Notes under the pieces: generated by a model
What the model was told of the DNA's origin: nothing
The model's input: only the letters and a program-made list of their open reading frames with translations
The model's database searches: none
Position numbers and translations under genes: made by a program
Part shown: piece by piece, positions 2-18,216 of the stretch
Numbering within the stretch: position 1 is the first letter of the stretch
Layout of the letters: every line of letters begins with the position of its first letter
Virus record (IMG/VR): IMGVR_UViG_3300047400_000175
Source: an uncultured virus (IMG/VR IMGVR_UViG_3300047400_000175)
Taxonomy: Duplodnaviria; Heunggongvirae; Uroviricota; Caudoviricetes
DNA length: 21,453 nt
Reading direction: 5' to 3' (one strand)

Positions 2-3000
2 CAGGGTATTATAGGCGCATTATCTGGTGGCTTAACTGGTAATGTTACAACACTAATTGGAAAGGGTACAGGAGCCTACAAGAAGTCATCTAATGTAGTT
101 CCTGATGATTTGCAGAAATTATCTACATTAAAGCAATATAAAGATTTAGTGTCTATGATTAATAGACATTCCAACATTGTACAAGACCAGAAAAATGCTG
201 TTAATAACAATGATACATTCTCTTACGAGAATTCTAAGAATGATGGATTTATAAATTATGTTTATACCAAATTAAAATATGAAAGAGGTGAAGACCTGCT
301 AGATGAATTAAAACAGTTCTCTAGTATGTCAGAAGTGGAATTTAAATCTAATTTTGGTAATGAATTATCTAAGGATGAAATATCACAAACTAAACAGTCT
401 GTTAGTGAATTTGTTAATGATAAGATAGATAAAGTTAAAAAAATACAAAGGACATTTGATGCTGTTCATGAGAAATTTCCAAATGCTTCTGAGGCCAATA
501 AAGAAAGACTTGCTTATAGTAGTTTAACTATCGATAATGCTAAATCTAGAAAGCAAGCATTAAATAAAGAAATTAATGAATTAATTAGAAAAAATGCTCC
601 CTCTAATGAATCACTAGTGTTGCTAGGTAATGATTATTTACACACATCTAAAGAGGGTAGAGAATCTTATATAGAGGCATTAAATAAATCCAATATTAAT
701 CCTTTAGATATTGAAGGTATTAAATCTAAAATATCAGATATTAATAAATTAGAAGAAAGAGAAAATCAATTTGTTAAGGAGTATCATGCTCTTACTAAAG
801 AGGACTATCAGAATAAACTAGACAAAGCTGATAAGAAAGTTGAGGCAAAAGTCACTCAAACTAATACTCCCAAGGAAAACCCATTTGATTCGCATACATC
901 AACAACACAAGAAACCCCTGTAGATACAGAATCTGAACTAACTCAAGAACAAGCTAGTTCTATGGGTATGGACTTTGGTAATACACCAAAGACAGATTGG
1001 CATTCATTAATAAATAATGCACAAGGTGAGAAGGAACTTAATGCTGTACAAGACCAAATAATTAAATCTGGTGAGGACAGTGTGGAATTATCAAATGCTA
1101 TTGGTAAGAAACGTGAGTTTTTAAATAAACAAAAAGAATTTAATACTAAATATAACTCTCTAAATGAGAAATCTACAACAGATGAATTAAAATCTGTTGG
1201 GAATGATTTAAATACTAATTATAAAGAGCATTATAAAGAAGAGCACATATCTCATTTAAGAGAATTATACAATAATGCTAAAAACAGAGAGGATGTAGCT
1301 AAATCTCAAACACCAACAAGAAAGAGTGAAAAAACTTCATTATTCTTTTTTAATAGATTTGCTGGTACTTCAGCACATCCAGTAGATATTGACGCTACTA
1401 GACTACTTTCATCCATTAATTTAAGTAATCCTAAACATTTAGAGAAATTAATACTAACTATTAATCCTTATAAAGGCCCATATGGACACAATCAAGAAAT
1501 ATCTTTACATTATATCAAGAATGATGGAACTAAGATGTTTCTTGGATTTCTAATTGATGGAACTTCTGAAAAAGCAACTGCTGATGTTTTAAATATTGGA
1601 GAAAAAGAAAAATCTAAATTATTTATTAATCATTTGTTGTCTTTGAACAAGTCTGAGTTTACAATGAATGAGTTAGTAAATTCTGGTTTGATTAATTTAA
1701 ATTTAGAAACAGATGGTTTTAATATACTTAGAACCCCTGAAGGAAGAATAGGTGTTGCTGAGTCCACTGTTTTTGAAAAGGATGCTTCTGGAAATGTCAT
1801 TATACTAGATAATCAATCTAAAACTAAAGTAAAGGGTGAAATGGGTGTTCTTAATGAGAACATGTCATGGGAGGATATTCAAAAATTAGGAGAAACAGAC
1901 AATTCAAGTAAATGGATTGATCCTACAGATCAGCAAATTGCTGAATTTGATAGATATTCTGTTGTCCTAAAAATAGGAGATAAAGTTTATTTTGTAGCTG
2001 CTCAGCCTAAACAAGTATCTGAAAAAGATTTTAATGATGCATTAAAACAAGCTAAAGAACTTAGTAAGAAATATCATGAAAATCATGCTGAAGGTGAGGC
2101 TAGATTAGAAGAATTAAAACATGATCAAGATAATACTAAATTAAATACTAAATTTTTCTTTGCTGTTCCTGATGCCAAAAAACTTGGAATTAAACAAGTT
2201 ATTGTAGATACTCCACCAGAAGGTGGACTTAGAGTACAATATACTAAGAACGATACACCTCACAAGGTATATTTAAATCATGAACAACTTTCTAATATAT
2301 CTACTAGTGAGGAGTTATTAAAAGCACTAAATCATCAATTAAAAGGTGGAGATGGTCAGGAGATGATGAGTGTAACAGAGTTACTGGACGATGGGTCAGA
2401 AGTAAAATCAGAATCTAGGTTATCGTCTAAAACTCCAGATTTTCAATTTAACGAGAAAACAAGTATTAGATATAAAGTAAGTCAAACAAATGCTAAAGAT
2501 GCAGCAGAGGTCTTACAATCATCACTAGATACTAAAAACCCATTTACTGCCACAGCATTGAGGGTTAAATTTAATTCTATTGCTGCAACACAAGAAGTAA
2601 AATCTGAACCAGAAGTTATATTGGCTGTTAGACCTAAAGGTTTAACTGTTGAAAATAATCCTGTAGTAGAGGATTCTGATGATATTATTAATAAACTATC
2701 AGATAATACTCCAGAGGAATTAATTGATTTAGAAAAAGCCAACAATTGGCTTAGGACACATCTTCCCTCATTTATAAGGGTAAAGGACATTGAGAGTATT
2801 TTAAGTCGTTTAAAAGCAAGAGGAATTCATTTTGGGGCATTCCAGAATGCTGTTATATATTTAAATACTAAAGCTGAACGTGGTACAGAGTATCACGAGG
2901 CCTTTCATGCTGTTTTCAGAACTTTGCTTTCTGATTCTGAAATTGCTAATTATTTAAAATTAACTAAACAAGAGAGAGGTAAAGCAACTCTAGAAGAAAT

Positions 3001-6000
3001 AAAGAACTTTAAAGAAAAATATACATTACAAGATAAATCTAATATTTATGTAGAAAATCTCATATATGAGGAATATATGGCAGATAAATTCATGGATTTT
3101 GTTAAACTTAAAGACAAAGCCATGGAAGATAAATCTATTAAAGGATGGTTTAAATTATTATGTAAGAAAATATCAGATTGGTTCAAATATGTATTTTCTA
3201 ATAAAACAACATTAGATGCTCTATATTATAAAATAGAGAAGGGAGGATTTAAGAATAACAATGCTATAAATAATAGATTTGGTACAAATGACATTGTTAA
3301 CAAATTATTAATATCTTGTAAAAAAGAAGGAGGTAAATTTGTTAAATGTTATTTATCTGCTCAAAAGACAGAGGATGCTCTAATGAATGTTTTGGTTTTA
3401 TATGGTCAGGCAATAAATGATAATTCAAATGTTGAAAAGTCTCTAAAGAAGAAAAAATCACAACTATTAGATGATGTTATTACTAATCTAGCTAATTCAT
3501 TTAGAGTTAATGAAACAAATTCTGCAATTTATGATGGACTTTCTACAGAAAAAGCAGAAGAATTTCAAAACTTTCTACAAAGTATGCTATATACTTTTAC
3601 TAATGCTGATTCTGTATATCTTATAAAGTCAGAAATTAATAGAAGGTATACAAATATTACAGGTATTTCTTCAGAGTCGGAGGAAATTAATGACAAAGAA
3701 AGTGAATTAGGTAATAGATGGGATATTGATTTTTCTAGTATTGGTGGATTTGGTAATCTTTCAAAACAAATTAGAGGCTACATGGCTACTACTCCAATTG
3801 AAGACACTAATGAGTGGGGCATGAAGACATACAGAGCAGTTAATGTTGCCTATGTATATAGTGGTTTAGAAAGAACTCTTTCTAATACTCCTAAAAATCA
3901 AATGATGGATAAATTAATTGCTTTTGCAGAGTTTAATCCTGACACTAAAGCATTTTTAGATAGAGTAAAGAAAGAAGTTGATTATAATGAGGAAACTAAG
4001 CAGTTTAATAATGAAAGTTATATATGGAAGGCAATAACTAATAATTTTAATACATATAAAGTTAATAGCAGGTCCATATTAATCGATGACAGAATAGAGC
4101 AGGCAAGAAATCCGAAAACTGGGTTGATTGATAAATCTGTACAAAAGAAACATTCAATACCGAGAGCTAATAGCAGAGATATTGACGTGAGAGAAGTTGA
4201 AAGATTTCATAGACAATTTATTAATAGTTATCAAGACTCAAAGTATCAAAGTGATATTCTGGATAAAGTAAAAAGTATTTATAATAAATTTTTATCTGTT
4301 AACCAAACAGCAAGTATTACTAATGTTAATATGCGTGAAGAGGCTAAAAATATTAAAAATGCTTTTTCAGAATTAGGATTTGATTTATCATTAGGATACA
4401 TTTCTTATTCTATCATAGCTAATAGAAAATCTCATACTAAAGAGCAAGAAAGAATTGTAACTTCTTATAAGGATGTTGTTCCTATTAATAAATTAGGTGG
4501 TAGAGATAATGGATTTTTGGATATTGTAGAACTTATTAAACAAGGTAAAAATCCTTTTGATAAGGAATCTGGAGATGATGCTACAGTTAAATTAAAACAA
4601 TTGGCATTAGCTAATGCTGAATTTGACGAGACTATAGGTAGTTCTACCTATCAAAATGAGGAAGGAGAAACTGTTTATGCATATTTGCGAGGTACACATT
4701 CTATTAGAAAGATGTATGAATTACAAAATCCTAGTACTCGAAAGATAACAACTTTAAAGCAATTTATTAAAGATCATCCTGAGTATTCTAAGTATGAAGC
4801 AGAGACTTATTTTAATATATTTAAAGTAAATCCTCTACTTAATGATGAGTATGCTGATTACATATTTGATAAAAATTTTACAATTGAATTACTTGGGGGA
4901 GGTAGAAATAGAGAAGAGGATGAAGGTAAGTCATTTGGAAGCATGACATTCAGAGATACCATTATTAGTATTTATACAGCATTTTTTAATTCCCAGGTTA
5001 GAAAAACAATTACAAAACCTGATGGAACAAAGTCATCTCTAACTACAGCATTGTTTTATCCTAAAGTACTAGAAGCTAGTTCTACAGGGTATTTAACACC
5101 ACTACCAATTAAGATATATTATGAAAATGGAAAATTATCAGAACTCGCTGAAAAACAATTGTTTAGTTATTTTACGCAGGAGGCAGAGAGAATATTAAAG
5201 ATTCAAAAGGAAATAAATTCTAACTACAAGGGTGTTTCTAAAATAGAAGGAGTCAATTATTCACTAAAAGGTAAGTCTCTAAGAGGATTAGAGTTTTTTC
5301 ATTTCTTTAAATTAAATCCTCAATTAGGTGACAAAGTTAAAAACTTTATTATAGAACAGGCAAAAAATGAAGAAAGGAAGGAGTTAAATTTTCCAGCTGA
5401 GTTATTAGGGGAGATAAAAGAAGCTATATCTAAGGAATATAATAAAGAATTGGAAGATCACATATCTCATTTAAAAGAAGTTAATTTATTAACTAGCGAT
5501 AGAGATGAATCTGGACATAAAACAAATGCTTTAATTGCTAGAAATAATCTTCTTCCTGGAGAGTTATTCAGAGAAGTGTTTTATAATGACAAAGATGGTG
5601 TTAGCAAATCCAAATTAGTATTAATTAAAGATGAATTAGGACATGCTTTTTATAATGATTTATTTAATTCATGGGCACTAAATAATTTATTGGATGGTGA
5701 TATTGCTTATTCTAGAAAGGATGCTGATGATTATGTAAAAAGAAATAAGGGAGCTAATGCTGCTACTCAGAATTATGGGGACGGGGTATCTTATGGGGCT
5801 ATATTAAGAGAACCTGTAGTCAAAAGTAATTATTCTAATAATAATATAGATATTGCTGATGCCCAACAATGGGAGAGTATGAAGTGGAGAATGAAGAAGT
5901 TGTTTGAGAAGGGTCAACTACCAAAAGTAGTTGAAGACATACTTAATCAAATTGCATCTGATGATATTAGGGGATTTTATGATGCCTCTAATTATATTCC

Positions 6001-9000
6001 TGAAAATCTATTGGATATTCTAAAAGAGAATCAAGCAATGTTATTGTCAGATAAGGATGTATATTATGATGGTGAGACTTACTTAAAACTCTCCTCAATG
6101 CTTCTTACAAGACAATTAACATCTATAAAGGTACCTATTGGCACTAAGGGAGCTGTGCAATCAAATGCTATTAATTTTAGGGGAGATAAAATAAATGCTC
6201 ATTGGTATATTGCCATACCAGGAATGGAGGATTTGCATAATATGCTTAATGAAATGGAGGAGAAGAATATTGACTATGTTGGTACAGAGTCTACTTCCAA
6301 AGGAATGACACAAGATGTTGGGGAATTGGGTAGCTTAACTCCACGCCCACATTTGAATTTAAATTGGGGTATGCAACACCCTGTACCGTCTAATAAGAAT
6401 TATGGTACAGATGGTTCACAAAAAAATGTATTAATTAGTTCTGAAACTGGTGAAAAAACAAAAGAATTAGCTAAAGAACATTCTAATTTATTAGCTCAGA
6501 GAGTTAAAATTGCTTCTGAACAAGCATTTAATATTTTAAAAGATAATCTTGGAAACAAAGAATATACATTAAAATATGTAATTGATAAGTTTCAAGAAAC
6601 ATTGCAGCAGTCTGGAGCTGATATAAATTTATTAGAATTATTTTCTAAGGATGATCGTACAGGGCTTTTAAAACATAATTTAAATCAACCAATATCTATA
6701 AATAAGTTTGAACAATTATACTATGCGCATTTTACAAAAGATGTATTGTATTCTAAGGCTCCAATGCACACATTTGTATTAGTTAGTTCTCATGGAATTA
6801 ATGTTACTATAGACAGTAGAACTAGTCAAATAGTACACAGAGCGGATATTAATGAAGAAAACTACCAATATTTAGTTTCTAGACCACTTAAGTATAATAA
6901 TGAAACTGGGGTAGGTGAAATTATGATACCATCTCATTTCAAGGAATTTGGACTAAAACCAGGTGATCATATACCTAGTGATTTGTTAGAATTTTTAGGA
7001 ATTAGAATTCCAACAGAAGATAAGAGATCTATGATGAAATTAAAGGTTGTTGATTTCTTGCCTACTTATTACGGTAGTATAATGGTTGGACCTAAGGAAA
7101 TTGTTGAGTTTTCTGGAGCTGACTTTGACGTTGATAAGATGTTTAGTAGAAGATATGAGCATTATATTGATGAAAATGGTAATTTACAAAAATATGACAG
7201 TGGTAATAAGACGATAGAGCAAAGATGGAATGAATATTTAATTTATAACTTACAACAAAATAAATTTGTTAAAAGTTTAATAAGTAAATATACTAAAGAT
7301 GATATTTCATTTCTATCATATGATGAATTTTTACAAGATGTTGATAACGAGGATAATGTAAAATCTTTAGAGAAATTAAAAGCATTAATTGCCTCTAAGG
7401 CTCTTCAACAAGCCCTTAGAGAATCTGGATTGCCAAGTACATTAGAAGAATTTAAAACCAAAACCAATAGTGATGGTGAACAAAATTTAGGAGTAATAAA
7501 TAATGATTTGCTTTCCAAGGAATTGCAAATTTATAGTTCTGAAGATAATAAAGACATCAGAACTGAAATTTCATCAAATCAAGAATTAAAAGATCTGGCT
7601 AATAAATCAGACAAATCAAAAAGCTCTATTTATGGCATTAATGGTAAAATGTCTTCTAAAGAGGCCAATGATACTGGCAAAAATAACATTGGTGTTGCTG
7701 CAATATCTAACATGGTGTTTAATTTACTTTCCAGAAATAAAGTTAAATTAATTAAACCAGTTAAAATAGGAGAAGATGTTTTTGATAGTTTTGAATTTAG
7801 AAATAATGATGGTAAACGTAGAACATCTATAATAGCAATGATATTAGCTGCCATGACAGATAACGCTAAGGATAGACTAGCAGCTAAATTTAATCTAACT
7901 ACTAATACCTTACCCAGTGCTTTGTATTTAATTTCAATTGGGGTTCCGTTAAAAACAACAATGAAATTAATTAAATCTGATGCAATTAAAAGATATACTG
8001 ATAGAATATCTGTAATTGGACAGTCAGCATTTAAATCAACTTATGAGAAACAAAATTACAATGAATCTAAAGTATTTAAAGATATTAGAGAGTTTTTAAT
8101 TAATAAATTTGAAAACTCTAAGCCTGAGAGAGAAGAATTAAAAATACCTTCTGGTATTTCAGAGGATATGTTTAACAGCGATGAAATAGTTGATCAATTA
8201 GCAATATTAAATTTCTTTGAAAAATTAAACAAAGATGCTCAAGTATTAAGAAAAATCAATACATTAATGCAATTAAACAAAGGAATGAAAATTTCTATAG
8301 CTGAAAATGATGAGGTTAATAATGCGTTGGAAGAACTAGGAATCAACTCTAAAACATTTACCAAGAAATCAGACAAGGAATTTAAAAAATTAAATCTACC
8401 ATTTGATGTTAGGAATATTTTCTCTGTAAGAAGTGGTTATTTCAATGAGTTATTGCACCAACATAATCAAGTGCACAATAATGTATCTAAGGAGTTCTTT
8501 GTGACTCAAAGTGCATTAGGAAGAACAATAGTTGATTTAATAAGAAATAATGTAAAGTCTACAACAGCCAGAAGCAAAAACACATTTCATAAAATATATA
8601 GAGATGTCCTATCATATTTAGCAATACAGTCATATAGAAGGTTTTTAGAAAATTCTAATATTAAAGATAAGGAAATGTGGTTAAAATCACTTTCTATTGA
8701 TAATGTATTAGGTGACGATGCTATTGCTAAGAAATTAGGAAAATTAAAGAAAGCATACCCTAATAACTTATTCTTAAAGAATATAACTAGTGATAAATTT
8801 AATATACTAAATAATACCTCTGAAGAGGGTAATATTGATACTATTACTGGAAATAGTAGGACTAGACTTCATCCTGAATATGTTGAAAAGATATTAAATT
8901 CTTTTCAGGAGTTATATTATGATAAATCCTCAAGACAAGATGCTATTGACATATTCAACTATATGATAATTAAAGATGGGATGCAGTTTAAAAATAACAG

Positions 9001-10795
9001 CATCTCTAGATTTATTGCTACATTTATGTATAATAACATGTCTCTAAATCTTAATAATTTAATTAATGATATTAAACAAGATAAGATTTCTAATGAGAAA
9101 TCCCAAGAGTTATTTGGTTTAGATAAAGCAGATGTGGTAGAGGACGCATTAGCTAGAATATTTTTATATAGAGAAAATATATATGATCTAATACCTTACT
9201 TATCTAAAGGTATGGATGGGGCATATTTAGATGAGAATGGTAATTTAATTATAGATTTCTGGCATAACTTTGATAAGTCTTGGAGTACTGAAAAGAAAAC
9301 AGAATTTGCTAAAAATGCAAGAAAGCAATTTCAAGCAAATAATCAAGTTATTAAACCTGATTTTGATGAGGAAGTAAAACAAGCAATTGTTGCTGATGGA
9401 CAAGTCTTTGAGGAAGAAGTTAAAAAGAAAACATTATATAAATTTCCAATATTTTTAAATACTAAAGATGGAATATTTAAATTAGTGTCTCTGAATTCTA
9501 AATCTGCTGATAAGTCATTGTTAGAATTAACTAAGAATGGAGAAACTATTTCTTCATATTATGCTAAATATGTTAAAGTTAGTTCATTTGGGGTCAAACA
9601 AATTAGCAATGTAGGGATATCAAAAGATGAAATTTCTAAAATAGAAGAAAGAAAATTACCTAAAAGTGAGAAAAACACATCTTTAAATACAAAAGAATCT
9701 TCAATTCTATCTCCAGAACAAGATAAGGCAATTACAGATATATTCAATGAACATTCAGAACAGATATATTCTCAATTAGGAAATAAAACTGTTGCTAATA
9801 ATGTTAAAATTAAATCTTGGAGTGAATTAAAAGAGGCTAAAAAAGCAATTACTCCAGAAGGTATAATTTCTACAAGAATCCCTAATACTAATGAACACTT
9901 TGGTAACCCTTTTAGTCATGACCCTGCTGGTAAAGCACAAGGATTAATTAAAACAGAAACTATTAAAGAAGCTGTTGAGAAATATATTGATTGGATTTTA
10001 AATGATAAAAACGATATTTTACAAAAACATGGAAAATCCTTACAACAACAATCTAATAATTTAGTTGAAAATATTAATAAAATAAAAGAATTTTTAAAAT
10101 CTAAAGGTTTTGGAAATTCTGAAATTTATTTAGTTGGTGGTAGAATAACTAATAAAAATCTTATAGAAGATTCTGATTTAGATTTAATATTAAAAGTTGA
10201 AAAAACTCCATTTGATAATATCCCAATAATAGATAAAGAAGATAATAAAATTTATTGGATGCAAGAAATTAATAAATTTATTCATCAATTTGGAAAAGAT
10301 ATTCATATTTTACAACATTTCAATAAAGAAACACCTAAAGGTGAAATAATAAATAAGAATTTAACTATTAATATTAAATTTAATAATCAACAAATCCAGC
10401 CAGAAAGAAGAGATTGGATTAGAAAACAATTAAAATCAGGAGAATTAAAAGATAAACCTATTTTTTATTACAAAGAACTTGGAGAACCTTCTCATGCAAC
10501 AGCTTTAGATTATTTAATCAATAAATATAATTGGAATAATACAAAAGAACAACAAGATAAAACTATTAAAGAAGAAGAAAGACTTATTAAAAATAGTGTA
10601 GATTTATCAAAGGATTCAGTATTAAATGATATATCTAATAGTTTAACAATACTCAATGAAGATAAAACACTGTCTCCTAAAGAAAAAAATAGTAAAATTA
10701 AAGCATTAAGAGAACTAGAAAATATTGTTAAAAATAAAAAGAATCTCACTGAGAAAGATCTTGGTGAAATAAGAAGAAAATTTTGTAATATATAA
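2..10795 (+). CDS. Giant crAss-like virion RNA polymerase polyprotein, 5'-truncated by the window: zincin domain, two-barrel RNAP, C-terminal DUF4326-like/nucleotidyltransferase module
   Basis: The frame is open from nt 2 (QGIIGALSGGLTGNVTTLIG...), so the TTG at 110 is not the true start. Catalytic GADFDVDK (DxDxD at 7121-7135) is preceded by GIRIPT (6998-7015). Also present are KRNKG (~5740), DAQ (5858), GKNNIGVAA (~7680) and DNAKD (7859), which I recall as motifs of crAss-like/phi14:2 gp66-type RNAPs. Ends TAA 10793-10795. Confidence 0.93.
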   Translation, partial: QGIIGALSGGLTGNVTTLIGKGTGAYKKSSNVVPDDLQKLSTLKQYKDLVSMINRHSNIVQDQKNAVNNNDTFSYENSKNDGFINYVYTKLKYERGEDLLDELKQFSSMSEVEFKSNFGNELSKDEISQTKQSVSEFVNDKIDKVKKIQRTFDAVHEKFPNASEANKERLAYSSLTIDNAKSRKQALNKEINELIRKNAPSNESLVLLGNDYLHTSKEGRESYIEALNKSNINPLDIEGIKSKISDINKLEERENQFVKEYHALTKEDYQNKLDKADKKVEAKVTQTNTPKENPFDSHTSTTQETPVDTESELTQEQASSMGMDFGNTPKTDWHSLINNAQGEKELNAVQDQIIKSGEDSVELSNAIGKKREFLNKQKEFNTKYNSLNEKSTTDELKSVGNDLNTNYKEHYKEEHISHLRELYNNAKNREDVAKSQTPTRKSEKTSLFFFNRFAGTSAHPVDIDATRLLSSINLSNPKHLEKLILTINPYKGPYGHNQEISLHYIKNDGTKMFLGFLIDGTSEKATADVLNIGEKEKSKLFINHLLSLNKSEFTMNELVNSGLINLNLETDGFNILRTPEGRIGVAESTVFEKDASGNVIILDNQSKTKVKGEMGVLNENMSWEDIQKLGETDNSSKWIDPTDQQIAEFDRYSVVLKIGDKVYFVAAQPKQVSEKDFNDALKQAKELSKKYHENHAEGEARLEELKHDQDNTKLNTKFFFAVPDAKKLGIKQVIVDTPPEGGLRVQYTKNDTPHKVYLNHEQLSNISTSEELLKALNHQLKGGDGQEMMSVTELLDDGSEVKSESRLSSKTPDFQFNEKTSIRYKVSQTNAKDAAEVLQSSLDTKNPFTATALRVKFNSIAATQEVKSEPEVILAVRPKGLTVENNPVVEDSDDIINKLSDNTPEELIDLEKANNWLRTHLPSFIRVKDIESILSRLKARGIHFGAFQNAVIYLNTKAERGTEYHEAFHAVFRTLLSDSEIANYLKLTKQERGKATLEEIKNFKEKYTLQDKSNIYVENLIYEEYMADKFMDFVKLKDKAMEDKSIKGWFKLLCKKISDWFKYVFSNKTTLDALYYKIEKGGFKNNNAINNRFGTNDIVNKLLISCKKEGGKFVKCYLSAQKTEDALMNVLVLYGQAINDNSNVEKSLKKKKSQLLDDVITNLANSFRVNETNSAIYDGLSTEKAEEFQNFLQSMLYTFTNADSVYLIKSEINRRYTNITGISSESEEINDKESELGNRWDIDFSSIGGFGNLSKQIRGYMATTPIEDTNEWGMKTYRAVNVAYVYSGLERTLSNTPKNQMMDKLIAFAEFNPDTKAFLDRVKKEVDYNEETKQFNNESYIWKAITNNFNTYKVNSRSILIDDRIEQARNPKTGLIDKSVQKKHSIPRANSRDIDVREVERFHRQFINSYQDSKYQSDILDKVKSIYNKFLSVNQTASITNVNMREEAKNIKNAFSELGFDLSLGYISYSIIANRKSHTKEQERIVTSYKDVVPINKLGGRDNGFLDIVELIKQGKNPFDKESGDDATVKLKQLALANAEFDETIGSSTYQNEEGETVYAYLRGTHSIRKMYELQNPSTRKITTLKQFIKDHPEYSKYEAETYFNIFKVNPLLNDEYADYIFDKNFTIELLGGGRNREEDEGKSFGSMTFRDTIISIYTAFFNSQVRKTITKPDGTKSSLTTALFYPKVLEASSTGYLTPLPIKIYYENGKLSELAEKQLFSYFTQEAERILKIQKEINSNYKGVSKIEGVNYSLKGKSLRGLEFFHFFKLNPQLGDKVKNFIIEQAKNEERKELNFPAELLGEIKEAISKEYNKELEDHISHLKEVNLLTSDRDESGHKTNALIARNNLLPGELFREVFYNDKDGVSKSKLVLIKDELGHAFYNDLFNSWALNNLLDGDIAYSRKDADDYVKRNKGANAATQNYGDGVSYGAILREPVVKSNYSNNNIDIADAQQWESMKWRMKKLFEKGQLPKVVEDILNQIASDDIRGFYDASNYIPENLLDILKENQAMLLSDKDVYYDGETYLKLSSMLLTRQLTSIKVPIGTKGAVQSNAINFRGDKINAHWYIAIPGMEDLHNMLNEMEEKNIDYVGTESTSKGMTQDVGELGSLTPRPHLNLNWGMQHPVPSNKNYGTDGSQKNVLISSETGEKTKELAKEHSNLLAQRVKIASEQAFNILKDNLGNKEYTLKYVIDKFQETLQQSGADINLLELFSKDDRTGLLKHNLNQPISINKFEQLYYAHFTKDVLYSKAPMHTFVLVSSHGINVTIDSRTSQIVHRADINEENYQYLVSRPLKYNNETGVGEIMIPSHFKEFGLKPGDHIPSDLLEFLGIRIPTEDKRSMMKLKVVDFLPTYYGSIMVGPKEIVEFSGADFDVDKMFSRRYEHYIDENGNLQKYDSGNKTIEQRWNEYLIYNLQQNKFVKSLISKYTKDDISFLSYDEFLQDVDNEDNVKSLEKLKALIASKALQQALRESGLPSTLEEFKTKTNSDGEQNLGVINNDLLSKELQIYSSEDNKDIRTEISSNQELKDLANKSDKSKSSIYGINGKMSSKEANDTGKNNIGVAAISNMVFNLLSRNKVKLIKPVKIGEDVFDSFEFRNNDGKRRTSIIAMILAAMTDNAKDRLAAKFNLTTNTLPSALYLISIGVPLKTTMKLIKSDAIKRYTDRISVIGQSAFKSTYEKQNYNESKVFKDIREFLINKFENSKPEREELKIPSGISEDMFNSDEIVDQLAILNFFEKLNKDAQVLRKINTLMQLNKGMKISIAENDEVNNALEELGINSKTFTKKSDKEFKKLNLPFDVRNIFSVRSGYFNELLHQHNQVHNNVSKEFFVTQSALGRTIVDLIRNNVKSTTARSKNTFHKIYRDVLSYLAIQSYRRFLENSNIKDKEMWLKSLSIDNVLGDDAIAKKLGKLKKAYPNNLFLKNITSDKFNILNNTSEEGNIDTITGNSRTRLHPEYVEKILNSFQELYYDKSSRQDAIDIFNYMIIKDGMQFKNNSISRFIATFMYNNMSLNLNNLINDIKQDKISNEKSQELFGLDKADVVEDALARIFLYRENIYDLIPYLSKGMDGAYLDENGNLIIDFWHNFDKSWSTEKKTEFAKNARKQFQANNQVIKPDFDEEVKQAIVADGQVFEEEVKKKTLYKFPIFLNTKDGIFKLVSLNSKSADKSLLELTKNGETISSYYAKYVKVSSFGVKQISNVGISKDEISKIEERKLPKSEKNTSLNTKESSILSPEQDKAITDIFNEHSEQIYSQLGNKTVANNVKIKSWSELKEAKKAITPEGIISTRIPNTNEHFGNPFSHDPAGKAQGLIKTETIKEAVEKYIDWILNDKNDILQKHGKSLQQQSNNLVENINKIKEFLKSKGFGNSEIYLVGGRITNKNLIEDSDLDLILKVEKTPFDNIPIIDKEDNKIYWMQEINKFIHQFGKDIHILQHFNKETPKGEIINKNLTINIKFNNQQIQPERRDWIRKQLKSGELKDKPIFYYKELGEPSHATALDYLINKYNWNNTKEQQDKTIKEEERLIKNSVDLSKDSVLNDISNSLTILNEDKTLSPKEKNSKIKALRELENIVKNKKNLTEKDLGEIRRKFCNI
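2740..3260 (+). other. Zincin-like metallopeptidase domain within the RNAP polyprotein
   Basis: GAFQNAVIYL...GTEYHEAFHAVF (HExxH at 2894-2908) with a downstream EEYMAD helix (3068-3085) that could supply the third ligand. Boundaries approximate. Confidence 0.85.
5680..8000 (+). other. RNA polymerase catalytic core (double-psi beta-barrel region)
   Basis: Ordered motifs KRNKG, DAQ, YLKLS, SKG, RIPT, GADFDVDK, GKNNIG, DNAKD. Boundaries approximate. Confidence 0.85.
9860..10534 (+). other. DUF4326-like domain split by an insertion
   Basis: N-half FGNPF (9899-9913)...EAVEKYIDWIL (to 10000). C-half PERRDWI...GELKDKPIFYY...PSHATAL (10400-10510). This resembles the DUF4326 pattern GNPF...Y..W...L.GK.L.C.C.P..CH...L, but the cysteines are absent. 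Confidence 0.6.
10040..10393 (+). other. Minimal Pol-beta-superfamily nucleotidyltransferase domain nested in the DUF4326-like domain
   Basis: A helix followed by EIYLVGGRITNKNLIEDSDLDLIL (10121-10192) matches the hG[GS]x9-13DhD signature. A candidate third Asp lies in GKDIHIL. Confidence 0.75.
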
Positions 10796-13700
10796 TGTAT
10801 TGTCCTAATCCACATAGTGAGCTCTATAAAGAGCTAATGATAATAAACAAAAACGATAAAGATCTAGTTTATTATGCTTATCATGAAATAGAAAAATTGC
10901 AAGAAATGGGACTTATATCTAATAAAAGATATAAGATGCCTGATGGAACAATGCGTTATACTATTAATAAAACAATTAATGAAAAATCATTAGCTGAGTC
11001 TTATAGAGGTGGTAGCGCTTTTACAATTGACTTAGCTAAAAAACAAAAATTAGATAATTATATTAAACAATTTAATATTAGTTTTTTAAATACGCAGATT
11101 AGTAAATCTGGTAAAGCAATATTTGTTAATATCACACCTGTTAAAAATCATGTTATTGAAGATATAAGAAGTGAGGACGAGCGTAAATTAGAAGAAGGAT
11201 ATAAACAAAATAAAAAAGAAGGTAACTGGGATATCAATTCTGAAGGAGATATTGTGCATTCTAATGATATGTATCAAGAAGATGAAAAAGTAAATTATGA
11301 TTTTAAAGTAGTTAAGATAATTAACGATAATATTAAAGAAATATTAAATTGGTTTAATAATAAATCTATAAATAAAGAATTATTTTGGAATAAGATTCAA
11401 CAATTAGGAATACCGAAAGAGCAATTAGAATTATTAAAAAACTCTGAAGGAAATACAATTTCTCAAAAACTAGTTTCTTTTTTAGCTAATTATAGTTATA
11501 CTGTTGAGATTAATACTGCTAAAAATGCTTCCGATAAAGCTAAAAAAGATAGTTGGAATAATGCTATTGAACAAGGTTTAAACCCCTGGGAAGAAGGTGT
11601 TGAAAATGATTTTCAAGGAAGTCCTACTCAATATTATTCTAATTTAACAGTACCAGGAGGAACTAACTACACAGAAAATGAAATAGCTACATCAGCTATT
11701 ATACCTTCTATAAAAGGACATGCTCAATTTGCTACAGATAATGGAATAGGTTGGTTTAGAAGTGATGAAAAAATTAATAGTACTCCAGATGTAATATTGC
11801 CTATAGGTACAAGTGGAAGTGGAAAATCTACTTTTATAAAATCTTTACCTCAAGATAATTTAGTAATTATTGAACCTGATTCTATGAGAGTAGAATTTAC
11901 AGGTAATATGAATGATAAATCTAAAGATAAAGAGATTTATGAAGAAGCCGCTAAAAGAGCTGTACAAACAATTAAAGATGGAAAACAAGTAGTATTTGAT
12001 ACAACTAATTTAACTAAGGATAAAAGACTACCTTTTATTGAAGCTATCAAAAAAGAAATTCCAAATGCTAATATTCAATACAAGTTAATGGAGTTAAATC
12101 CTGAACTTGCTAAACAAAGAATAAAAGCACAATTAGCAAGAGGTGAAAATAGAGCAAATGTTTCAGATGCTACAATAGATAGACACGCTGAATCATATAA
12201 ACAAATGCTTATAGATATTAAATCTGAACCTATTAGTGAATACAAAGAGCTAAATCAAACTTCTAAAACAAGACGTATTCTTGAAGTACAATCTGATTTA
12301 TTTCAGAAAGGTAGAGATAGTAAAGAGTTAGTTAATACTAATGGGATGATTAGAAGTTGGGACAACCCTGAATTTCTTAAAGCAATAAATGATAATCAAT
12401 TTCTACAACTTCTAAATAAAGACAATAACTGGGTAACATTCTTTGTTAAATCTATTATACAAGACTCTGCTAAGAAAGGATATGAGAAAGTATTATTTCC
12501 TAAAGGAGATACAGCTAGTAAAATTGAAGGTCATAGTACTTTAGAAGACTTTAAAAAACAAAAAGAAAATAGAATAAAAGAACTTGAAAAAACTCAATTA
12601 AAATATTTTGGAGAACAACTTACATCTGATTATGAACCTACAGGTAATATAACAAATTGGTATAGTACTGAACAAGAAGCAGAAGAAGCAGCTAAAAAAG
12701 AATATGAAAATTATCAAATAGGACAAACTGATGGTTTTGATAACTCTAAAGAAATAAATCAACTTAAACAAGAACTTGAAAGAGTAGAAAAAGAAGGATT
12801 TGGTGCTTTAAAACCTATTTATAAATTCTATGAAGAAACTATAGGTAATATTCTTAAAAAGAATTATAAAGATAATGTAAAAGAAATTACTGATGAATAT
12901 GGTAATAAGTGGTATCAATTAGATATTATTGATAAACATAAAGAAAATATATTATTTCAAAATAATAATACTTCTAAACAATTTAATATTCAATTAAATT
13001 CTAAAATTAAGAATTTCTTATCTAAAATAGGTGTAAATACAGTTAATGTAGAGCAGATATTAGATAAAAATGGTAATCCTATTTCTGCTATAGCAGTTGC
13101 TAAAATGTTAAATAAGATTATACAAGTAGTTGAAAATAAAGCAGACATAACAACACTTCCTGAAGAAACAGCCCACTTCTTTGTAGAACTATTAAAAGAT
13201 AACCAACTTCTTAATAAAATGTTAAAGGATATAGTTAATTATCCTGAATATAAAGAAGTAAGAGATTCTGAATTTTATCAAAAACAATATAAAGGAGATG
13301 AAACTTTAATTAGAAAAGAAGCGGTTGGTAAATTAATAGGAAGAATTATAGCTAAACAAGAAACATCAGAACAAGCTACTTCTTGGTGGGGAAGAGTATG
13401 GAATAAAATAAAGTCTATTTTTAATGGTAAATCTTCATTATTTGAAGAGATTGCTTCTGATATAAGGAAGGGTGATATATCTAAATTAGATAGCTCTAAA
13501 TCAATTTCTGGAAGTTTTTATCAAGATGAGCAATCTAAAAAATATGGAGATTATGAAGTAATTTCAGGAATGCCTTTTCAAGAATCTACTTTGGAAAAAA
13601 TGAAATCTGGTGAACAGCGAATAACCATTAGACCAAGAAATCATGTAAGTGGTAATTATAAGTTAGAAAATGGTGCAGAATTTAACATCATTAATTTAGG

Positions 13701-16419
13701 TAAAAAATCCATAGCAGATTTTAAAAATCCTGATTGGGTTAAAAAGAATTTTAAAGGTGATGATTATACAGAATCTGAAGAAAAATTTAAACACATTAAT
13801 CAATGGTTTGATGGTAAAAATGAAATGTATGTTTATCAAATAACTAAAATTGATAATAAAATCAAGAATGAGTATGTTAAAGAAAATCCTAATTTAGAAC
13901 AGACTGAAGAAAGTTTGAATAAACCAAAGGAAAAACAAAAATATCTTGGTAAATTTGAATTAATATATCAAAGACGTATTTCTAGATTAACCAAAGAATT
14001 AAATGAAAAAGGTATTTCTCAAGCTAGACATGATAAAATTAAAGCTGAGATAGATTATACATTAAAACAACTAGAATCCTTTAATACAGACCAATCAGAA
14101 GACAAATTAGAGTCTTCTGGGGAATTTGGTGAACACTTATTGAATTTAGCTAAGGAAAAATTAAATAATATATTAGAATCTAAACAAGAGCCTACAATGG
14201 ATATGATTAATTATTTTAATGAAATAATTGATACATATACAGAACATGATATATTAGCAAGTAAAGCCTTGTCTCTAAAAAGACAAGTGAGTAAACTTGC
14301 TGACAAGGCGTTGAACGAGAAATTACAATCAGAGACAGGACATTCATTAGCTGAAGCAGAGAAGCAAAATCAGGATATTCCATTTATGAGAAAATGGACA
14401 GGTTCTCTATTAGATTTAGATAATATATATGCTAATACTATAGGTAGAATAATTAGAAGTTCTCAAACTAAAATAGAAAGATTATCTAAAGCTTTACAAA
14501 GTGAAATAAATGGCAAATTAAAGGCGTTAGAAAGCACTTCTGAGAGAAAAGCTAGTGAGATATATAAAGAGTGTATTCATGTCTCTAAAGATGGGAAAAC
14601 AACATTACTTCCTAATCCAGCAGGATTATCTAAGGAGGCAGAGGAATTTTATTGGTTTTACAGACAAAAAATGAGAGAGTTAATAAAAATAATGCCCACT
14701 TTAACATATAGAAATAGTGAAGGGGTATTACAAGTATTTAATCTTACTGAATTTTTCATACCAAATGTTCCAAAAGACATTACTTTAAAAGACAAATTAA
14801 AGGAAAGTAAAAATCCGTTAAGAGTAACTGGGGTAATTAAAACTAGAAAACTAGGAAATTCTGTAAGGGATGAGGATGATAAAGCTGATATTATCCCATT
14901 GGAATATATTTTGTCACTTGATGAATCTGCTAAAACAGATGATTTGGGATATGCTTTATTTAAATTTGCAACTAGTGTATATAACCAGCATGAAATGTCT
15001 AGTATATTACCCACATTGAGAACTATTCAACGTAAAATTTATGATACTAATTATATACAAAAATCTAATCCTAAGAATACAAAATCAGGAAAGGATTCTG
15101 GTATTTATAAAATAGTTGATGGTTTTATTGATGCTCAAGTTAAAGGTAAGTATAAAAAAGAACAAGCAATGTACTCTTACAATCAATATGAAAAAGATGG
15201 AGATGTATTTGAGGATTATGTAGACATTAGGGGCACAATAGATAATATGTTAAGATGGAATAGCTTAAAAAGAATAGGTCTTTCTATCCCAGGAGCAATT
15301 GCCAACGTTGAATTTGGTCAGTTGTCTAACTTAATTGAAGCTATAGGAGGAGAACATTATAATAGGAAGCAACTAAGACAAGCTAAAAAGATATTTATTT
15401 CTCAAAATTTCAATAAAGACTCAATTCTTAATTCTGAATTACTATCTAAATATAATATTTTGCAAGAGTTAAATGATTATGAATTAGCAGAATCTGTTAA
15501 ATTCGGAAGTAGAAAAAGAATATCTAAAGAAAAATTAATGGAAATTATGTATGCCCCTCAGAAATGGGGTGAAAAATACATACAAAGTAGTTCATTATTA
15601 GCAATGATGTTACATGATGGATATATTGATTCTAATGGAGAATTAACTACTAAGTGGACTAATAGTACAGAGAAGCAAAAAGAAGACTTTATATTAAAGG
15701 TAACAGGCGTTAATAACAAATTACACGGACGTTATTCTCCAAAAGAGGCTGCTATTGCTCAACAAGATGTATTTTATAGGGCAATTAGTCAATTTAGAAA
15801 GTTTATTCCTGCTGCTTACGAGGCTAGATTTGATAAAAAACATTTTGATAGTAGATTAGGTCATGAAATTGAGGGCAGGTATTTAACATTTGGTAGAGAA
15901 GTATTAGGTAAGATTTTTACAGGTGAGGGATGGAATAATCTATTCCTACCATTAATATCAGCACAAAAAGCCTTAGCTAAAGATAATTTAACAGAGAATG
16001 AAATAGCTAATATTAGAAAAACAGCATTTGAATCACTGATCGTTATAGGTTGTGTAATATTAGGTATGATTGGTGGTGGTAGTTCTGATGAAGATAAAAA
16101 ACGTAGAAAATCAGCTTGGTACAAATCACTAATGCTTTCTTTGAATAGAGTTAGTGGGGACGTAGCATTCTTCTATAGTCCAGATCAATTAAATAACTTG
16201 GCTAAGAATGCTGTACCAATGACCCAACTAACAGGAGATATTATTAAACTTGGTAAGTATACAATGTCTCAATTTGGAGATGCTCCTGAATTTAAAGGAG
16301 GTAATGCCAAGGGTCAAAATAAATTAGTTAAAGGTTTATTAAATATTACTCCTGGTTCTAATATTATTCAAGATGCCACTAAGGTGTTAAATGATAATCC
16401 ACTAGATGAAATAAAATAA
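10795..16419 (+). CDS. Large crAss-like virion cargo/ejection protein (1874 aa), multidomain: PGGxNY...EVQSD domain with nested P-loop kinase, degenerate zincin, ASCH-like domain, C-terminal region with a hydrophobic helix
   Basis: Directly follows the RNAP gene with a TAATG overlap. N-terminal MYCPN. C-terminal LHGRY...QFRKFIP...RF...EGRYLTF...NIRK and hydrophobic SLIVIGCVILGMIGGG (~16033-16080) resemble the protein encoded after the RNAP in crAss-like phages (recalled, not searched). Confidence 0.8.
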   Translation: MYCPNPHSELYKELMIINKNDKDLVYYAYHEIEKLQEMGLISNKRYKMPDGTMRYTINKTINEKSLAESYRGGSAFTIDLAKKQKLDNYIKQFNISFLNTQISKSGKAIFVNITPVKNHVIEDIRSEDERKLEEGYKQNKKEGNWDINSEGDIVHSNDMYQEDEKVNYDFKVVKIINDNIKEILNWFNNKSINKELFWNKIQQLGIPKEQLELLKNSEGNTISQKLVSFLANYSYTVEINTAKNASDKAKKDSWNNAIEQGLNPWEEGVENDFQGSPTQYYSNLTVPGGTNYTENEIATSAIIPSIKGHAQFATDNGIGWFRSDEKINSTPDVILPIGTSGSGKSTFIKSLPQDNLVIIEPDSMRVEFTGNMNDKSKDKEIYEEAAKRAVQTIKDGKQVVFDTTNLTKDKRLPFIEAIKKEIPNANIQYKLMELNPELAKQRIKAQLARGENRANVSDATIDRHAESYKQMLIDIKSEPISEYKELNQTSKTRRILEVQSDLFQKGRDSKELVNTNGMIRSWDNPEFLKAINDNQFLQLLNKDNNWVTFFVKSIIQDSAKKGYEKVLFPKGDTASKIEGHSTLEDFKKQKENRIKELEKTQLKYFGEQLTSDYEPTGNITNWYSTEQEAEEAAKKEYENYQIGQTDGFDNSKEINQLKQELERVEKEGFGALKPIYKFYEETIGNILKKNYKDNVKEITDEYGNKWYQLDIIDKHKENILFQNNNTSKQFNIQLNSKIKNFLSKIGVNTVNVEQILDKNGNPISAIAVAKMLNKIIQVVENKADITTLPEETAHFFVELLKDNQLLNKMLKDIVNYPEYKEVRDSEFYQKQYKGDETLIRKEAVGKLIGRIIAKQETSEQATSWWGRVWNKIKSIFNGKSSLFEEIASDIRKGDISKLDSSKSISGSFYQDEQSKKYGDYEVISGMPFQESTLEKMKSGEQRITIRPRNHVSGNYKLENGAEFNIINLGKKSIADFKNPDWVKKNFKGDDYTESEEKFKHINQWFDGKNEMYVYQITKIDNKIKNEYVKENPNLEQTEESLNKPKEKQKYLGKFELIYQRRISRLTKELNEKGISQARHDKIKAEIDYTLKQLESFNTDQSEDKLESSGEFGEHLLNLAKEKLNNILESKQEPTMDMINYFNEIIDTYTEHDILASKALSLKRQVSKLADKALNEKLQSETGHSLAEAEKQNQDIPFMRKWTGSLLDLDNIYANTIGRIIRSSQTKIERLSKALQSEINGKLKALESTSERKASEIYKECIHVSKDGKTTLLPNPAGLSKEAEEFYWFYRQKMRELIKIMPTLTYRNSEGVLQVFNLTEFFIPNVPKDITLKDKLKESKNPLRVTGVIKTRKLGNSVRDEDDKADIIPLEYILSLDESAKTDDLGYALFKFATSVYNQHEMSSILPTLRTIQRKIYDTNYIQKSNPKNTKSGKDSGIYKIVDGFIDAQVKGKYKKEQAMYSYNQYEKDGDVFEDYVDIRGTIDNMLRWNSLKRIGLSIPGAIANVEFGQLSNLIEAIGGEHYNRKQLRQAKKIFISQNFNKDSILNSELLSKYNILQELNDYELAESVKFGSRKRISKEKLMEIMYAPQKWGEKYIQSSSLLAMMLHDGYIDSNGELTTKWTNSTEKQKEDFILKVTGVNNKLHGRYSPKEAAIAQQDVFYRAISQFRKFIPAAYEARFDKKHFDSRLGHEIEGRYLTFGREVLGKIFTGEGWNNLFLPLISAQKALAKDNLTENEIANIRKTAFESLIVIGCVILGMIGGGSSDEDKKRRKSAWYKSLMLSLNRVSGDVAFFYSPDQLNNLAKNAVPMTQLTGDIIKLGKYTMSQFGDAPEFKGGNAKGQNKLVKGLLNITPGSNIIQDATKVLNDNPLDEIK
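11785..12235 (+). other. AAA_33 / T4 polynucleotide-kinase-like P-loop kinase domain
   Basis: VILPIGTSGSGKST (Walker A 11806-11832), EPDSMR (DxxR), VVFDTTNL and the lid AKQR...R...RANVS appear in the order seen in PNK-type kinases. Confidence 0.85.
12990..13500 (+). other. Degenerate zincin-like domain (EExxH instead of HExxH)
   Basis: AIAVAKMLNKIIQV...TTLPEETAHFFV (13159-13176)...KEAVGKLIG...WWGRVWNKIK parallels the layout of the intact zincin in the upstream gene. Confidence 0.6.
13567..13855 (+). other. ASCH/PUA-like domain (putative RNA binding)
   Basis: MPFQESTLEKMKSGEQRITIRP resembles the ASCH N-terminal pattern F...I.SG.K..T.R, although the conserved Lys is replaced. Ends in a beta-strand-like MYVYQI. 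About 95 aa. Confidence 0.45.
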
Positions 16420-17415: not shown

Positions 17416-17616
17416 TTAATTATTAATATTCTTTCTCCAAATAGCACGGTTTTTATTAAACACTGTAATAAAACCAGGCAAAGTTACTTTAGATTTATTA
17501 TTAACCTTTTTAAAGGCAAAATAAGCCACTACAGGAGCTTTCTTATAATATCCAGGCTTACTATTCAACCAACTTTTAGCACTGCGTGTGCTCATTTTAC
17601 TATTATTGTTATTCAT
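17416..17616 (-). CDS. Small basic hypothetical protein (66 aa)
   Basis: Start overlaps the end of the upstream gene, as elsewhere in the operon. No recognisable motif. Confidence 0.55.
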   Translation of the reverse strand: MNNNNSKMSTRSAKSWLNSKPGYYKKAPVVAYFAFKKVNNKSKVTLPGFITVFNKNRAIWRKNINN

Positions 17617-17941
17617 TCTTAATATTTAATTTACTTTTTTCTTCTTCAAAGATTATACCCCCACAATTAAACATAATTGCAGCAAGGTGATCTTCATTAT
17701 TTTCAAGACTACCACCTTCATATTTATTAATAAAATATTTAGTAATATGTCTCATCATACTAGCTTCATATGAACTAATAGGTATTCCTTTTTTAAAATT
17801 ACCTTGTCCATATTTGCTTTTTTTAGAAGTCATATATTCTGCCCATCTCTTGAGTGTCAACCAAGGTATAGTTTCTATATAATCTTCTTTTCCTTCTTGG
17901 GAATCTCTTATAGCTCCTGATTCAAATTCTTGAATATTCAT
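17609..17941 (-). CDS. DUF5664-like dATP/dGTP diphosphohydrolase domain protein
   Basis: FESGAIRD...GK..Y...IP...L...A......KYG..NFKKGIP......S..RH...EDHLAAIMFN matches the family pattern. Confidence 0.8.
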   Translation of the reverse strand: MNIQEFESGAIRDSQEGKEDYIETIPWLTLKRWAEYMTSKKSKYGQGNFKKGIPISSYEASMMRHITKYFINKYEGGSLENNEDHLAAIMFNCGGIIFEEEKSKLNIKNE

Positions 17942-18216
17942 ATAACACTTGTTAAATATTTAGCTATAAAATATCCCATACCTGTTCCACCCATAGCTCC
18001 TACAGAGTATATTATTCTATCTTTCCATCCTCCAAATACAACTTGTCTAACATTAAAAGTCCAAAACAAGCTTATTAAAAAGCCTGTAATTAACATTAGA
18101 TAAATATATCCTTTAGATATGAAAGTTACATTCATAGCAACCATTGAAACTTGTAATAAAGCTGTAAAAAACAGTTTTATTCTAGCTTCAATATTACCGC
18201 TATCTATTGTCTCCAC
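17938..18216 (-). CDS. Small integral membrane protein (about 3 TM helices)
   Basis: Three hydrophobic segments, the last with YSVGAMGGTGMG small-residue packing. ATGA overlap with the next gene. Confidence 0.75.
   Translation of the reverse strand: METIDSGNIEARIKLFFTALLQVSMVAMNVTFISKGYIYLMLITGFLISLFWTFNVRQVVFGGWKDRIIYSVGAMGGTGMGYFIAKYLTSVI

Follow-up and report, generated by a model that had tools for sequence, protein, structure and literature searches.

Organization of the Locus

The stretch analyzed here (IMG/VR record IMGVR_UViG_3300047400_000175, from an uncultured virus assigned to Caudoviricetes), referred to below as the window, comprises 21,453 nucleotides of AT-rich phage DNA (~28% GC), and its source is a marine crAss-like phage. 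The window opens with one giant open reading frame (ORF), near the 3′ end of which a scaffold module related to DUF4326 is interrupted by a nested segment with the signature of a Pol-beta-superfamily nucleotidyltransferase (NTase). This insert, the module that carries it and the giant protein to which both belong are the subject of the present analysis. The features concerned are as follows:

2..10795, + strand: giant ORF from the ORF list, truncated at its 5′ end by the window edge and covering 3597 codons
7121..7135, + strand: DFDVD motif (ORF residues 2374–2378) found by motif scan, matching the DFDxD catalytic motif of crAss-like virion RNA polymerases (RNAPs)
9782..10009, + strand: N-terminal half of the module (NKT...HFGNPFS...EKYIDWILNDK), with 55–86% amino acid identity to hundreds of proteins and a predicted local distance difference test score (pLDDT) > 90
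10010..10390, + strand: nested insert, minimal Pol-beta-superfamily NTase-like, 127 amino acids, with bounds set by homolog comparison and ~3 residues uncertain at each end
10136..10183, + strand: predicted catalytic signature GG-x11-D-L-D, YLVGGRITNKNLIEDSDLDLI, read from the sequence, with GG at 10136–10141 and DSDLD at 10169–10183
10298..10300, + strand: candidate third catalytic Asp (GKDIHILQ), inside the stretch aligned to PF01909 profile positions 1–79
10391..10537, + strand: C-terminal half of the module (QIQPERRDWIRKQLKSGELKDKPIFYYKELGEPSHATALDYLINKYNWN), with nearly invariant columns in two family alignments and pLDDT 84–97
10538..10795, + strand: C-terminal tail, ending in translation as ...RRKFCNI*, with a Cys three residues before the end

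The Module Is Split by a Nested Insert

A 252-amino-acid query spanning both halves of the module and the insert (9782–10537) was compared with 1.84 billion representative proteins, which gave 320 matches at E ≤ 0.001 (clusters at 50% identity). The homologs surveyed were 150 of these 320 plus 120 of 228, and 233 proteins were re-aligned locally; all counts of junctions and inserts given here and below are among the matches listed. Nearly all listed homologs matched the query in two stretches, at residues 1–76 and ~204–252. The two halves were recovered as separate matches in 215 of the 233 re-aligned proteins, and in 144 of these 215 they abut, with an offset of −4 to +5 amino acids. Extra residues at the junction numbered 11–22 in 39 of the 215, and inserts of 28–340 amino acids were found in 32. 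Since the halves abut in most homologs, the flanks are the two halves of one domain and 10010–10390, i.e., residues 3742–3868 of the full protein, is an insertion. The in-frame translation runs ...EKYIDWILNDK / NDILQ...EIYLVGGRITNKNLIEDSDLDLIL...GKDIHILQ...KFNNQ / QIQPERRDWIRKQLKSGELKDKPIFYYKELGEPSHATALDYLINKY. A nested segment of ~130 residues between flanks that read as one domain had been placed at 10001–10393 in the initial annotation; empty-site versions of the domain exist as that proposal implied, and the bounds were refined by no more than 9 nt.

No other of 702 sliding 393-nt windows has a GC content as low as the 18.6% of the insert (mean 28.1%, standard deviation 2.8), in line with the 17–20% read earlier from sampled lines. 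GC content at third codon positions (GC3) falls from 16.8% in the ORF to 5.3% in the insert (binomial p = 7e-5), and all nine Glu codons were found to be GAA, as first counted, with no GAG, against 202 GAA and 91 GAG in the ORF (p = 0.035). Lys, Asn, Ile, Phe, and Tyr together make up 49% of the insert and 35% of the ORF, and the low GC is due in part to this K/N/I-rich amino acid content. The frame is nevertheless open through 127 codons at 81% A+T. Separate acquisition of the insert, suggested earlier from its composition, is supported by that composition and more strongly by the phyletic pattern, in which the site is elsewhere empty or filled with other cargo. A 14-nt direct repeat around the insert (GATTGGATT..AAA) was considered as an insertion scar and rejected, as it encodes DWI motifs that are present in empty-site homologs too.

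Relatives of the insert were sought at the protein and DNA levels. A word-indexed protein search at near and longer lengths returned only P0122 (96% identity over the last 42% of the insert), and a peptide-pattern search of IMG/VR, JGI metagenome contigs, and GTDB genome contigs returned no insert relative. With tblastn, the best E value was 2 against 50,697 phage records, and 2.6, again with no relative, against 50 IMG/VR loci carrying the module. None of the 37 other inserts has even a loose NTase motif. The nucleotidyltransferase is a lineage-specific cargo of one phage population.

P0122 itself is a protein of 214 amino acids encoded on a single 1820-nt contig, with an unrelated 90-residue N-terminus followed by the last 48 residues of the insert and the C-terminal half of the module. 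It is 97% identical over the insert end and the C half and diverges again after LIN; P0122 is a recombinant or else an assembly chimera.

The Insert Resembles Minimal Pol-beta Nucleotidyltransferases

The motif pattern hG[GS] followed 9–13 residues on by [DE]h[DE]h is matched in the insert by YLVGG-RITNKNLIEDS-DLDLI, and the stricter pattern hh-x-G[GS]-x8-14-D-h-[DE]-h-h was met a single time among the 643,665 residues of related giant proteins, namely here. The GG...DxD signature of NTase type pointed out in the initial annotation is intact, of Pol-beta type, and nested in frame. In the structural model of the module, strands at residues 113–118 and 134–139 bear the GG and DxD motifs. The Asp of GKDIHILQ would, we infer, provide the third carboxylate; the model has no strand at this point, with pLDDT 54–59.

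Pfam analysis of the isolated 140 amino acids identified PF01909 (NTP_transf_2) with 24.5 bits (cut-off 21; E 3.7e-5), and the same stretch matched PF22600 (MTPAP-like poly(A) polymerase palm) at E 8.6e-4 and mCpol at E 0.032. PF22600 and mCpol presumably belong to the same Pfam clan as PF01909. The sole sequence match by phmmer in PDB was the CD-NTase 6e0m (E 0.083), covering 65 residues with G[GS]...DxD aligned. The NCBIfam model “anti-phage nucleotidyltransferase” matched at E 0.0012, with 18 bits vs. a cut-off of 350. The named neighbors in the ESM Atlas were almost all small PF01909/PF18765 (Polbeta) clusters of 126–165 amino acids, with scores of 0.90–0.91. As to the family, the initial annotation had likened the insert both to class II CCA/poly(A) polymerase heads and to minimal NTases. 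The second likeness stands, with the PF01909 score of the isolated domain, and the first does not: the Pfam matches at E ≤ 1 did not include PF01743 (class II CCA/poly(A) head), and the C half of the scaffold follows directly on the insert.

The insert is very probably a Pol-beta-type domain; its catalytic activity and its substrate are predictions from sequence. It is like the minimal Pol-beta NTases (PF01909/PF18765, MNT-type of 120–170 amino acids) in its size of 127 amino acids, in hG[GS]-x9-13-DxD with a later Asp, in an isolated profile score above the Pfam cut-off, and in its language-model neighbors, which are standalone NTases of 126–165 amino acids. It differs from them in being nested in another domain, in having no detectable sequence relative, and in a fold match that is not significant. 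Neither a HEPN domain nor any other partner gene was present among the Pfam matches of the giant ORF and eight neighboring ORFs, and the insert is not grouped with the HEPN-MNT systems. It is not grouped with the CD-NTases either, given a match of 65 residues only and a length of 127 amino acids vs. the two-lobed ~300 amino acids of that family.

The Scaffold Is a Divergent DUF4326-Like Family

The scaffold is a divergent DUF4326-like family that lies outside formal Pfam membership. Weak matches to PF14216 were obtained for 13 of 40 family members at E ≤ 1, the best at 0.006 and none reaching the cut-off. The model of an empty-site homolog (P0124, pLDDT 89.4) was compared with BFVD, where the top E value was 9e-4 with a template modeling (TM) score of 0.63 on the target; K4RI33, named “DUF4326,” was matched with a probability of 1.00, and 11 DUF4326-named entries were among the top 38, by which the scaffold shares the fold of these proteins. 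In the models of the module and of the empty-site homolog, the insertion point is a loop between two helices.

The module is present in many proteins and at any position within them, including proteins of 93–450 amino acids, and many of these proteins are without RNAP. In relatives it adjoins ART-PolyVal, superfamily 1 (SF1) helicase, 2-oxoglutarate (2OG) oxygenase, and P-loop kinase domains, and such neighboring domains identify the module-bearing relatives as polyvalent proteins. By tblastn (E ≤ 1e-3), the module was found in none of 50,697 deposited phage records, as against 320 metagenome-derived clusters at 50% identity.

A DUF4326-type domain has been predicted by others to be a ribose-phosphate-processing enzyme acting on ADP-ribose-type phosphates, according to the portions of that work available. 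The scaffold is like the published DUF4326 domains in its fold match to viral DUF4326, its weak PF14216 matches, and its presence in phage conflict proteins with ART-PolyVal; compared with them, it has PSHATALDYL as its C-terminal motif, and Cys is nearly lacking in the family. As far as the accessible descriptions go, published DUF4326 proteins are fusions, whereas here a domain is nested in the loop, and the accessible parts of the DUF4326 literature hold no mention of nesting or of a nucleotidyltransferase.

The Loop Is an Insertion Hot Spot

The loop that holds the NTase is an insertion hot spot, a permissive socket of which most copies are empty. Inserts of 11–340 amino acids were found at the same point in 71 of the 215 proteins, and the 26 inserts of at least 60 amino acids fell into 14 classes unrelated by BLASTP, the NTase forming a singleton class. 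Four homologs were spanned by phmmer in one stretch; three of them share one insert and the fourth has a ParB_N-like insert, and none holds an NTase. A protein of 4087 amino acids (P0003) was found to carry two copies of the module, at residues 2235–2375 and 2692–2980, one empty and one filled with a 147-amino-acid insert of the class also represented by P0018, P0029, and P0162. Among 50 IMG/VR loci with the module, four filled ones were translated and all hold other cargo. Pfam analysis of 11 other cargo inserts gave sub-threshold matches only (ParB_N, E 0.0046; AAA_24, E 0.026), and the insert of P0196 matches DUF7831 and cpYpsA. By the look of their motifs, some of the other inserts may be NADAR-like, SLOG-like, P-loop, or HExxH domains.

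A mosaic was also observed at the DNA level. When positions 8500–10800 of the window were compared by blastn with the 50 IMG/VR loci, only 9754–10016 and 10402–10581 aligned. One locus, L008, aligned at 88.5 and 88.7% to the two halves, with nothing alignable upstream and a different cargo in the loop. Between the window and L008, the only locus covered by the synonymous-codon comparison, 78 of 95 conserved degenerate codons are identical vs. 52.5 expected from codon usage. This excess, together with the unalignable surroundings, indicates that the DNA of the module was shared more recently than its surroundings. The pattern fits mobility of the module and exchange of cargo by recombination in the conserved halves; strong selection may contribute.

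In the phage of L008, of which the module DNA is the closest to that of the window, the loop contains a Walker-A domain (GHPGIGKT) of ~150 amino acids (L008, 1501–2334, with P0073, residues 2358–2506), which matches AAA_24 weakly, at E 0.026.

The Giant ORF Is a Predicted Virion RNA Polymerase Polyprotein

The full-length protein comprises 4002 amino acids (P0002, a cluster representative) and is 100% identical to the window protein over the C-terminal 498 residues searched; the module lies ~85 amino acids from its C-terminus. Full-length proteins with an identical module were found on 7, 19, and 1 contigs from several sources (27 in total), and the variants of the 4002-residue protein differ by single residues outside the module. 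An 801-amino-acid stretch spanning DFDVD (residues 2000–2800) was compared by tblastn with the deposited phages and matched 84 crAss-like phage records, with a best E value of 5e-13 and 25–28% identity over ~240 amino acids. Several of the matched features are annotated as “putative RNAP (catalytic subunit).” The label of virion RNAP given to this chain in the initial annotation is supported by this homology to crAss RNAPs together with the DFDVD motif. The whole ORF had no match at E ≤ 1 among PDB sequences, so that gp66 of Cellulophaga phage phi14:2 is not detectable by phmmer, and PHROGs returned nothing for the giant ORF. With an RNAP region, a DUF4326-like module, and an NTase in one ORF, the protein is, as judged from its sequence, a crAss-like virion RNAP polyprotein and also a polyvalent protein, of which the packaging is predicted.

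In the available part of the preprint on the crAss-like enzymes, these RNAPs are described as virion-packaged enzymes that are translocated to the host cell, with a DFDxD motif (Drobysheva et al., bioRxiv 10.1101/2020.03.07.982082). The same text reports that in some phages the RNAP and two neighbors are fused into one huge polyprotein, which is probably cleaved (bioRxiv 10.1101/2020.03.07.982082). The window protein is like the crAss virion RNAP phi14:2 gp66 in its DFDxD motif, its homology to “putative RNAP” features, and its character of a giant virion-type protein or polyprotein. It differs in adding C-terminal passenger modules, which none of the 50,697 deposited phage records contains.

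Cysteine is rare in the module-bearing proteins, at 0.067% of residues with a median of 2 per giant protein. Of 220 module-bearing proteins, 141 nevertheless have a Cys among their last 4 residues, and of 146 giant ones that start with Met, 62 have one among their first 10. In the window protein there are 4 Cys over the full 4002 amino acids, of which one lies 3 residues from the end (10784–10795, ...FCNI*) and none near the N-terminus.

Proposed Role and Alternative Explanations

It is probable that the NTase is a lineage-specific passenger that occupies a permissive loop in a mobile scaffold, reaches the cell together with the virion RNAP polyprotein, and transfers nucleoside monophosphate to a host protein or to a nucleotide- or ADP-ribose-derived molecule as counter-defence. 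The polyprotein would be packaged in the virion and enter the cell with the DNA, and its C-terminal passenger module may be freed by proteolysis. The GG/DxD site would then carry out the transfer to one of these acceptors, and the NTase would act jointly with the DUF4326-like scaffold, predicted to process ribose phosphates, for the purpose of early counter-defence. Pol-beta NTases are a recognized protein-modifying class in polyvalent proteins, where, in the accessible text of a survey, they are predicted to nucleotidylate a protein target (Iyer et al., 2017, PMC5512222). The insert is like the NTases of that survey in being a minimal NTase built as one module into a giant multi-enzyme protein that a mobile element encodes. 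The survey, in its available parts, places them only in conjugative elements of Firmicutes, fused end to end with ArdC-N, and not in phage-type polyvalent proteins; here the NTase lies in a crAss-like phage RNAP polyprotein and is nested, not in tandem (PMC5512222).

Several observations weigh against this account. For the scaffold, Pfam DUF4326 (PF14216) scored 14.8 bits vs. a cut-off of 25, with profile positions 17–63 of 82 aligned, and the structure searches returned no solved relative. For the insert, PF01909 falls below its cut-off of 21 when scanned in context (20.1, 19.5, and 19.2 bits within 497, 3597, and 4002 amino acids, respectively). As the insert is without a homolog, the conservation of GG/DxD has no comparison set, and a K/N/I-rich and very AT-rich sequence is what fast-evolving or decaying DNA also presents. 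The AlphaFold model gives the insert pLDDT 45–83 (helix, strand, strand, helix, and coil), with residues 169–206 free of secondary structure; the low values go with AlphaFold having had no homologs for the insert. A Foldseek search of PDB with the whole-module model gave nothing significant, with TUT7, GLD-2, Rel, and cGAS at E 0.47–5, and further fold searches (VIA) gave nothing significant, the top entries being helical hairpins and unrelated alpha/beta proteins. The structure prediction called for in the initial annotation did not demonstrate a Pol-beta fold, as pLDDT was 45–83 and NTases appeared only as non-significant fold matches. With 14 unrelated inserts in one loop, the nesting may reflect tolerance of the loop and not cooperation between the domains. 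Finally, the homologs examined were 150 of 320 and 120 of 228, and more NTase-bearing copies may exist.

Some of these points would also be expected if the insert were inert or decaying filler, that is, a tolerated expansion of the loop in which the NTase-like motif is vestigial or coincidental and the segment is catalytically dead, at most a spacer. The insert is an orphan for which every search came back without a relative, its GC is lower than anywhere else in the window, with GC3 at 5%, model confidence is low, and the Pfam score is marginal in context; all of this agrees with such filler, as does a loop that takes many unrelated inserts (11–46 amino acids in 51 of 215 proteins). Filler is unlikely, however, as GG and all three expected acidic positions are intact in a correct hydrophobic context, in a pattern met once in 643,665 residues; 127 codons have stayed open at 81% A+T, full-length proteins on 27 contigs share one identical module, and the isolated domain exceeds the curated Pfam cut-off. 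An artefact, be it an assembly chimera or a gene hidden in a different frame that the giant ORF reads through, has next to no probability and is effectively refuted: in P0122 an unrelated N-terminus is indeed fused to the insert end and the C half of the module, but the 4002-residue protein is found on 7, 19, and 1 contigs from several sources, and the family match lies in the ORF's own frame. A search for a hidden out-of-frame gene found no alternative-frame ORF of more than 69 codons (stop to stop) overlapping the insert, and those present look low-complexity.

The other alternatives concern the substrate. The initial annotation had envisaged a second nucleotide-adding site serving the polymerase, and an activity of this kind could take the form of RNA-end tailing, in which the NTase adds untemplated poly(A), poly(U), or CCA-like ends to early RNAP transcripts, host RNAs, or tRNAs, and the kinase encoded in the next ORF heals RNA ends. 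The same polypeptide does contain the DFDVD RNAP, the MTPAP-like poly(A) polymerase palm comes second among the Pfam matches (E 8.6e-4), the weak Foldseek matches are mostly terminal uridylyl or poly(A) transferases, and the P-loop kinase of the next ORF matches a PHROG “polynucleotide kinase.” We also take the IYLVGG strand to resemble the start of class II CCA enzymes. Tailing is highly unlikely all the same, for a 127-residue domain without RNA-binding, neck, or body domains, with PF01743 not among the matches at E ≤ 1, and with other cargo in the socket that shows no RNA theme. The scaffold and its socket occur in many RNAP-free proteins and at any position, and the polyprotein, going by the available preprint text, is probably cleaved (bioRxiv 10.1101/2020.03.07.982082). 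The link between the NTase and the polymerase looks like co-delivery and not shared function.

A cut-down CD-NTase, mCpol, or RelA-type protein that makes, mimics, or sequesters a second messenger, and so subverts host immune signaling, is quite unlikely. In its favor, the only PDB sequence match is the CD-NTase 6e0m (E 0.083), mCpol and the NCBIfam “anti-phage nucleotidyltransferase” were matched at E 0.032 and 0.0012, a Rel synthetase is among the weak fold matches, RelA/SpoT NTases are known in phage-type polyvalent proteins from the accessible text of the survey (PMC5512222), and the scaffold is predicted, in the available descriptions, to process ADP-ribose-type phosphates. These matches are, however, far under the family thresholds (18 bits vs. 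350 and 15.1 vs. 26.4), the ~150-residue C-terminal helical lobe needed by CD-NTases is absent here, and the insert has no recognizable acceptor-site features.

The account of a passenger NTase delivered for counter-defence can be extended to the module as a whole, in a form that we regard as doubtful. The module would be a protein-level cargo socket that takes interchangeable enzyme domains of at least 14 unrelated classes, and its halves, conserved even at synonymous sites, could serve as homologous-recombination arms by which uncultured marine phages exchange injected counter-defence enzymes, in an integron-like manner. The captured NTase would work with the predicted phosphatase-like site of the scaffold on one substrate, for example, by nucleotidylating a host immune effector or signal and inactivating it within seconds after the DNA has entered.

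Implications

The first wave of counter-defence enzymes is believed to travel on the giant proteins that crAss-like and other phages inject, and to our knowledge almost none of these enzymes has been assayed. The socket-like behavior of the module is the more notable part of the present observations, a single orphan domain being modest by comparison. One loop of a highly conserved module takes in a variety of unrelated domains, while the DNA arms on either side are up to 88% identical among phages that otherwise do not align; this suggests a general route for diversifying injected payloads. The inserts of the socket form a natural catalogue of candidate anti-defence enzymes, and the loop may be permissive enough to take engineered domains as well. 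The 252-amino-acid unit (residues 3666–3917 of the full protein) is compact, combining the scaffold with an NTase for which a DxD mutant is the obvious control. Being abundant in metagenomes (320 clusters) and absent from 50,697 deposited phage genomes, the module marks an unstudied phage group. The present case also adds a phage-type polyvalent protein to the settings of Pol-beta NTases, which the available part of the 2017 survey (PMC5512222) has in conjugative elements only.

Neighboring Genes in the Window

Other genes of the window include the following:

10795..16419, + strand: second giant ORF of 1874 amino acids, beginning at the stop codon of the preceding ORF and containing a P-loop kinase domain (residues 328–469)
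17609–18565, − strand: dGTP_diPhyd_N (3.7e-11) and MazG (5.3e-08) genes identified by Pfam, with a small membrane-like ORF between them

The kinase domain of the second ORF matches Pfam AAA_33 (1.8e-16) and Zeta_toxin (6.2e-5), and PHROG 505, “polynucleotide kinase” (4e-11). In the family alignment, a near-identical kinase stretch adjoins the module in a module-bearing protein of 327 amino acids (P0165). The rest of the window resembles phage replication genes, with an RNase H-like exonuclease, a MazG-type pyrophosphohydrolase, a 5′–3′ exonuclease, and an HNH protein. The paired pyrophosphohydrolase-type genes at 17609–18565 on the minus strand hint at the handling of the dNTP pool or of modified nucleotides.

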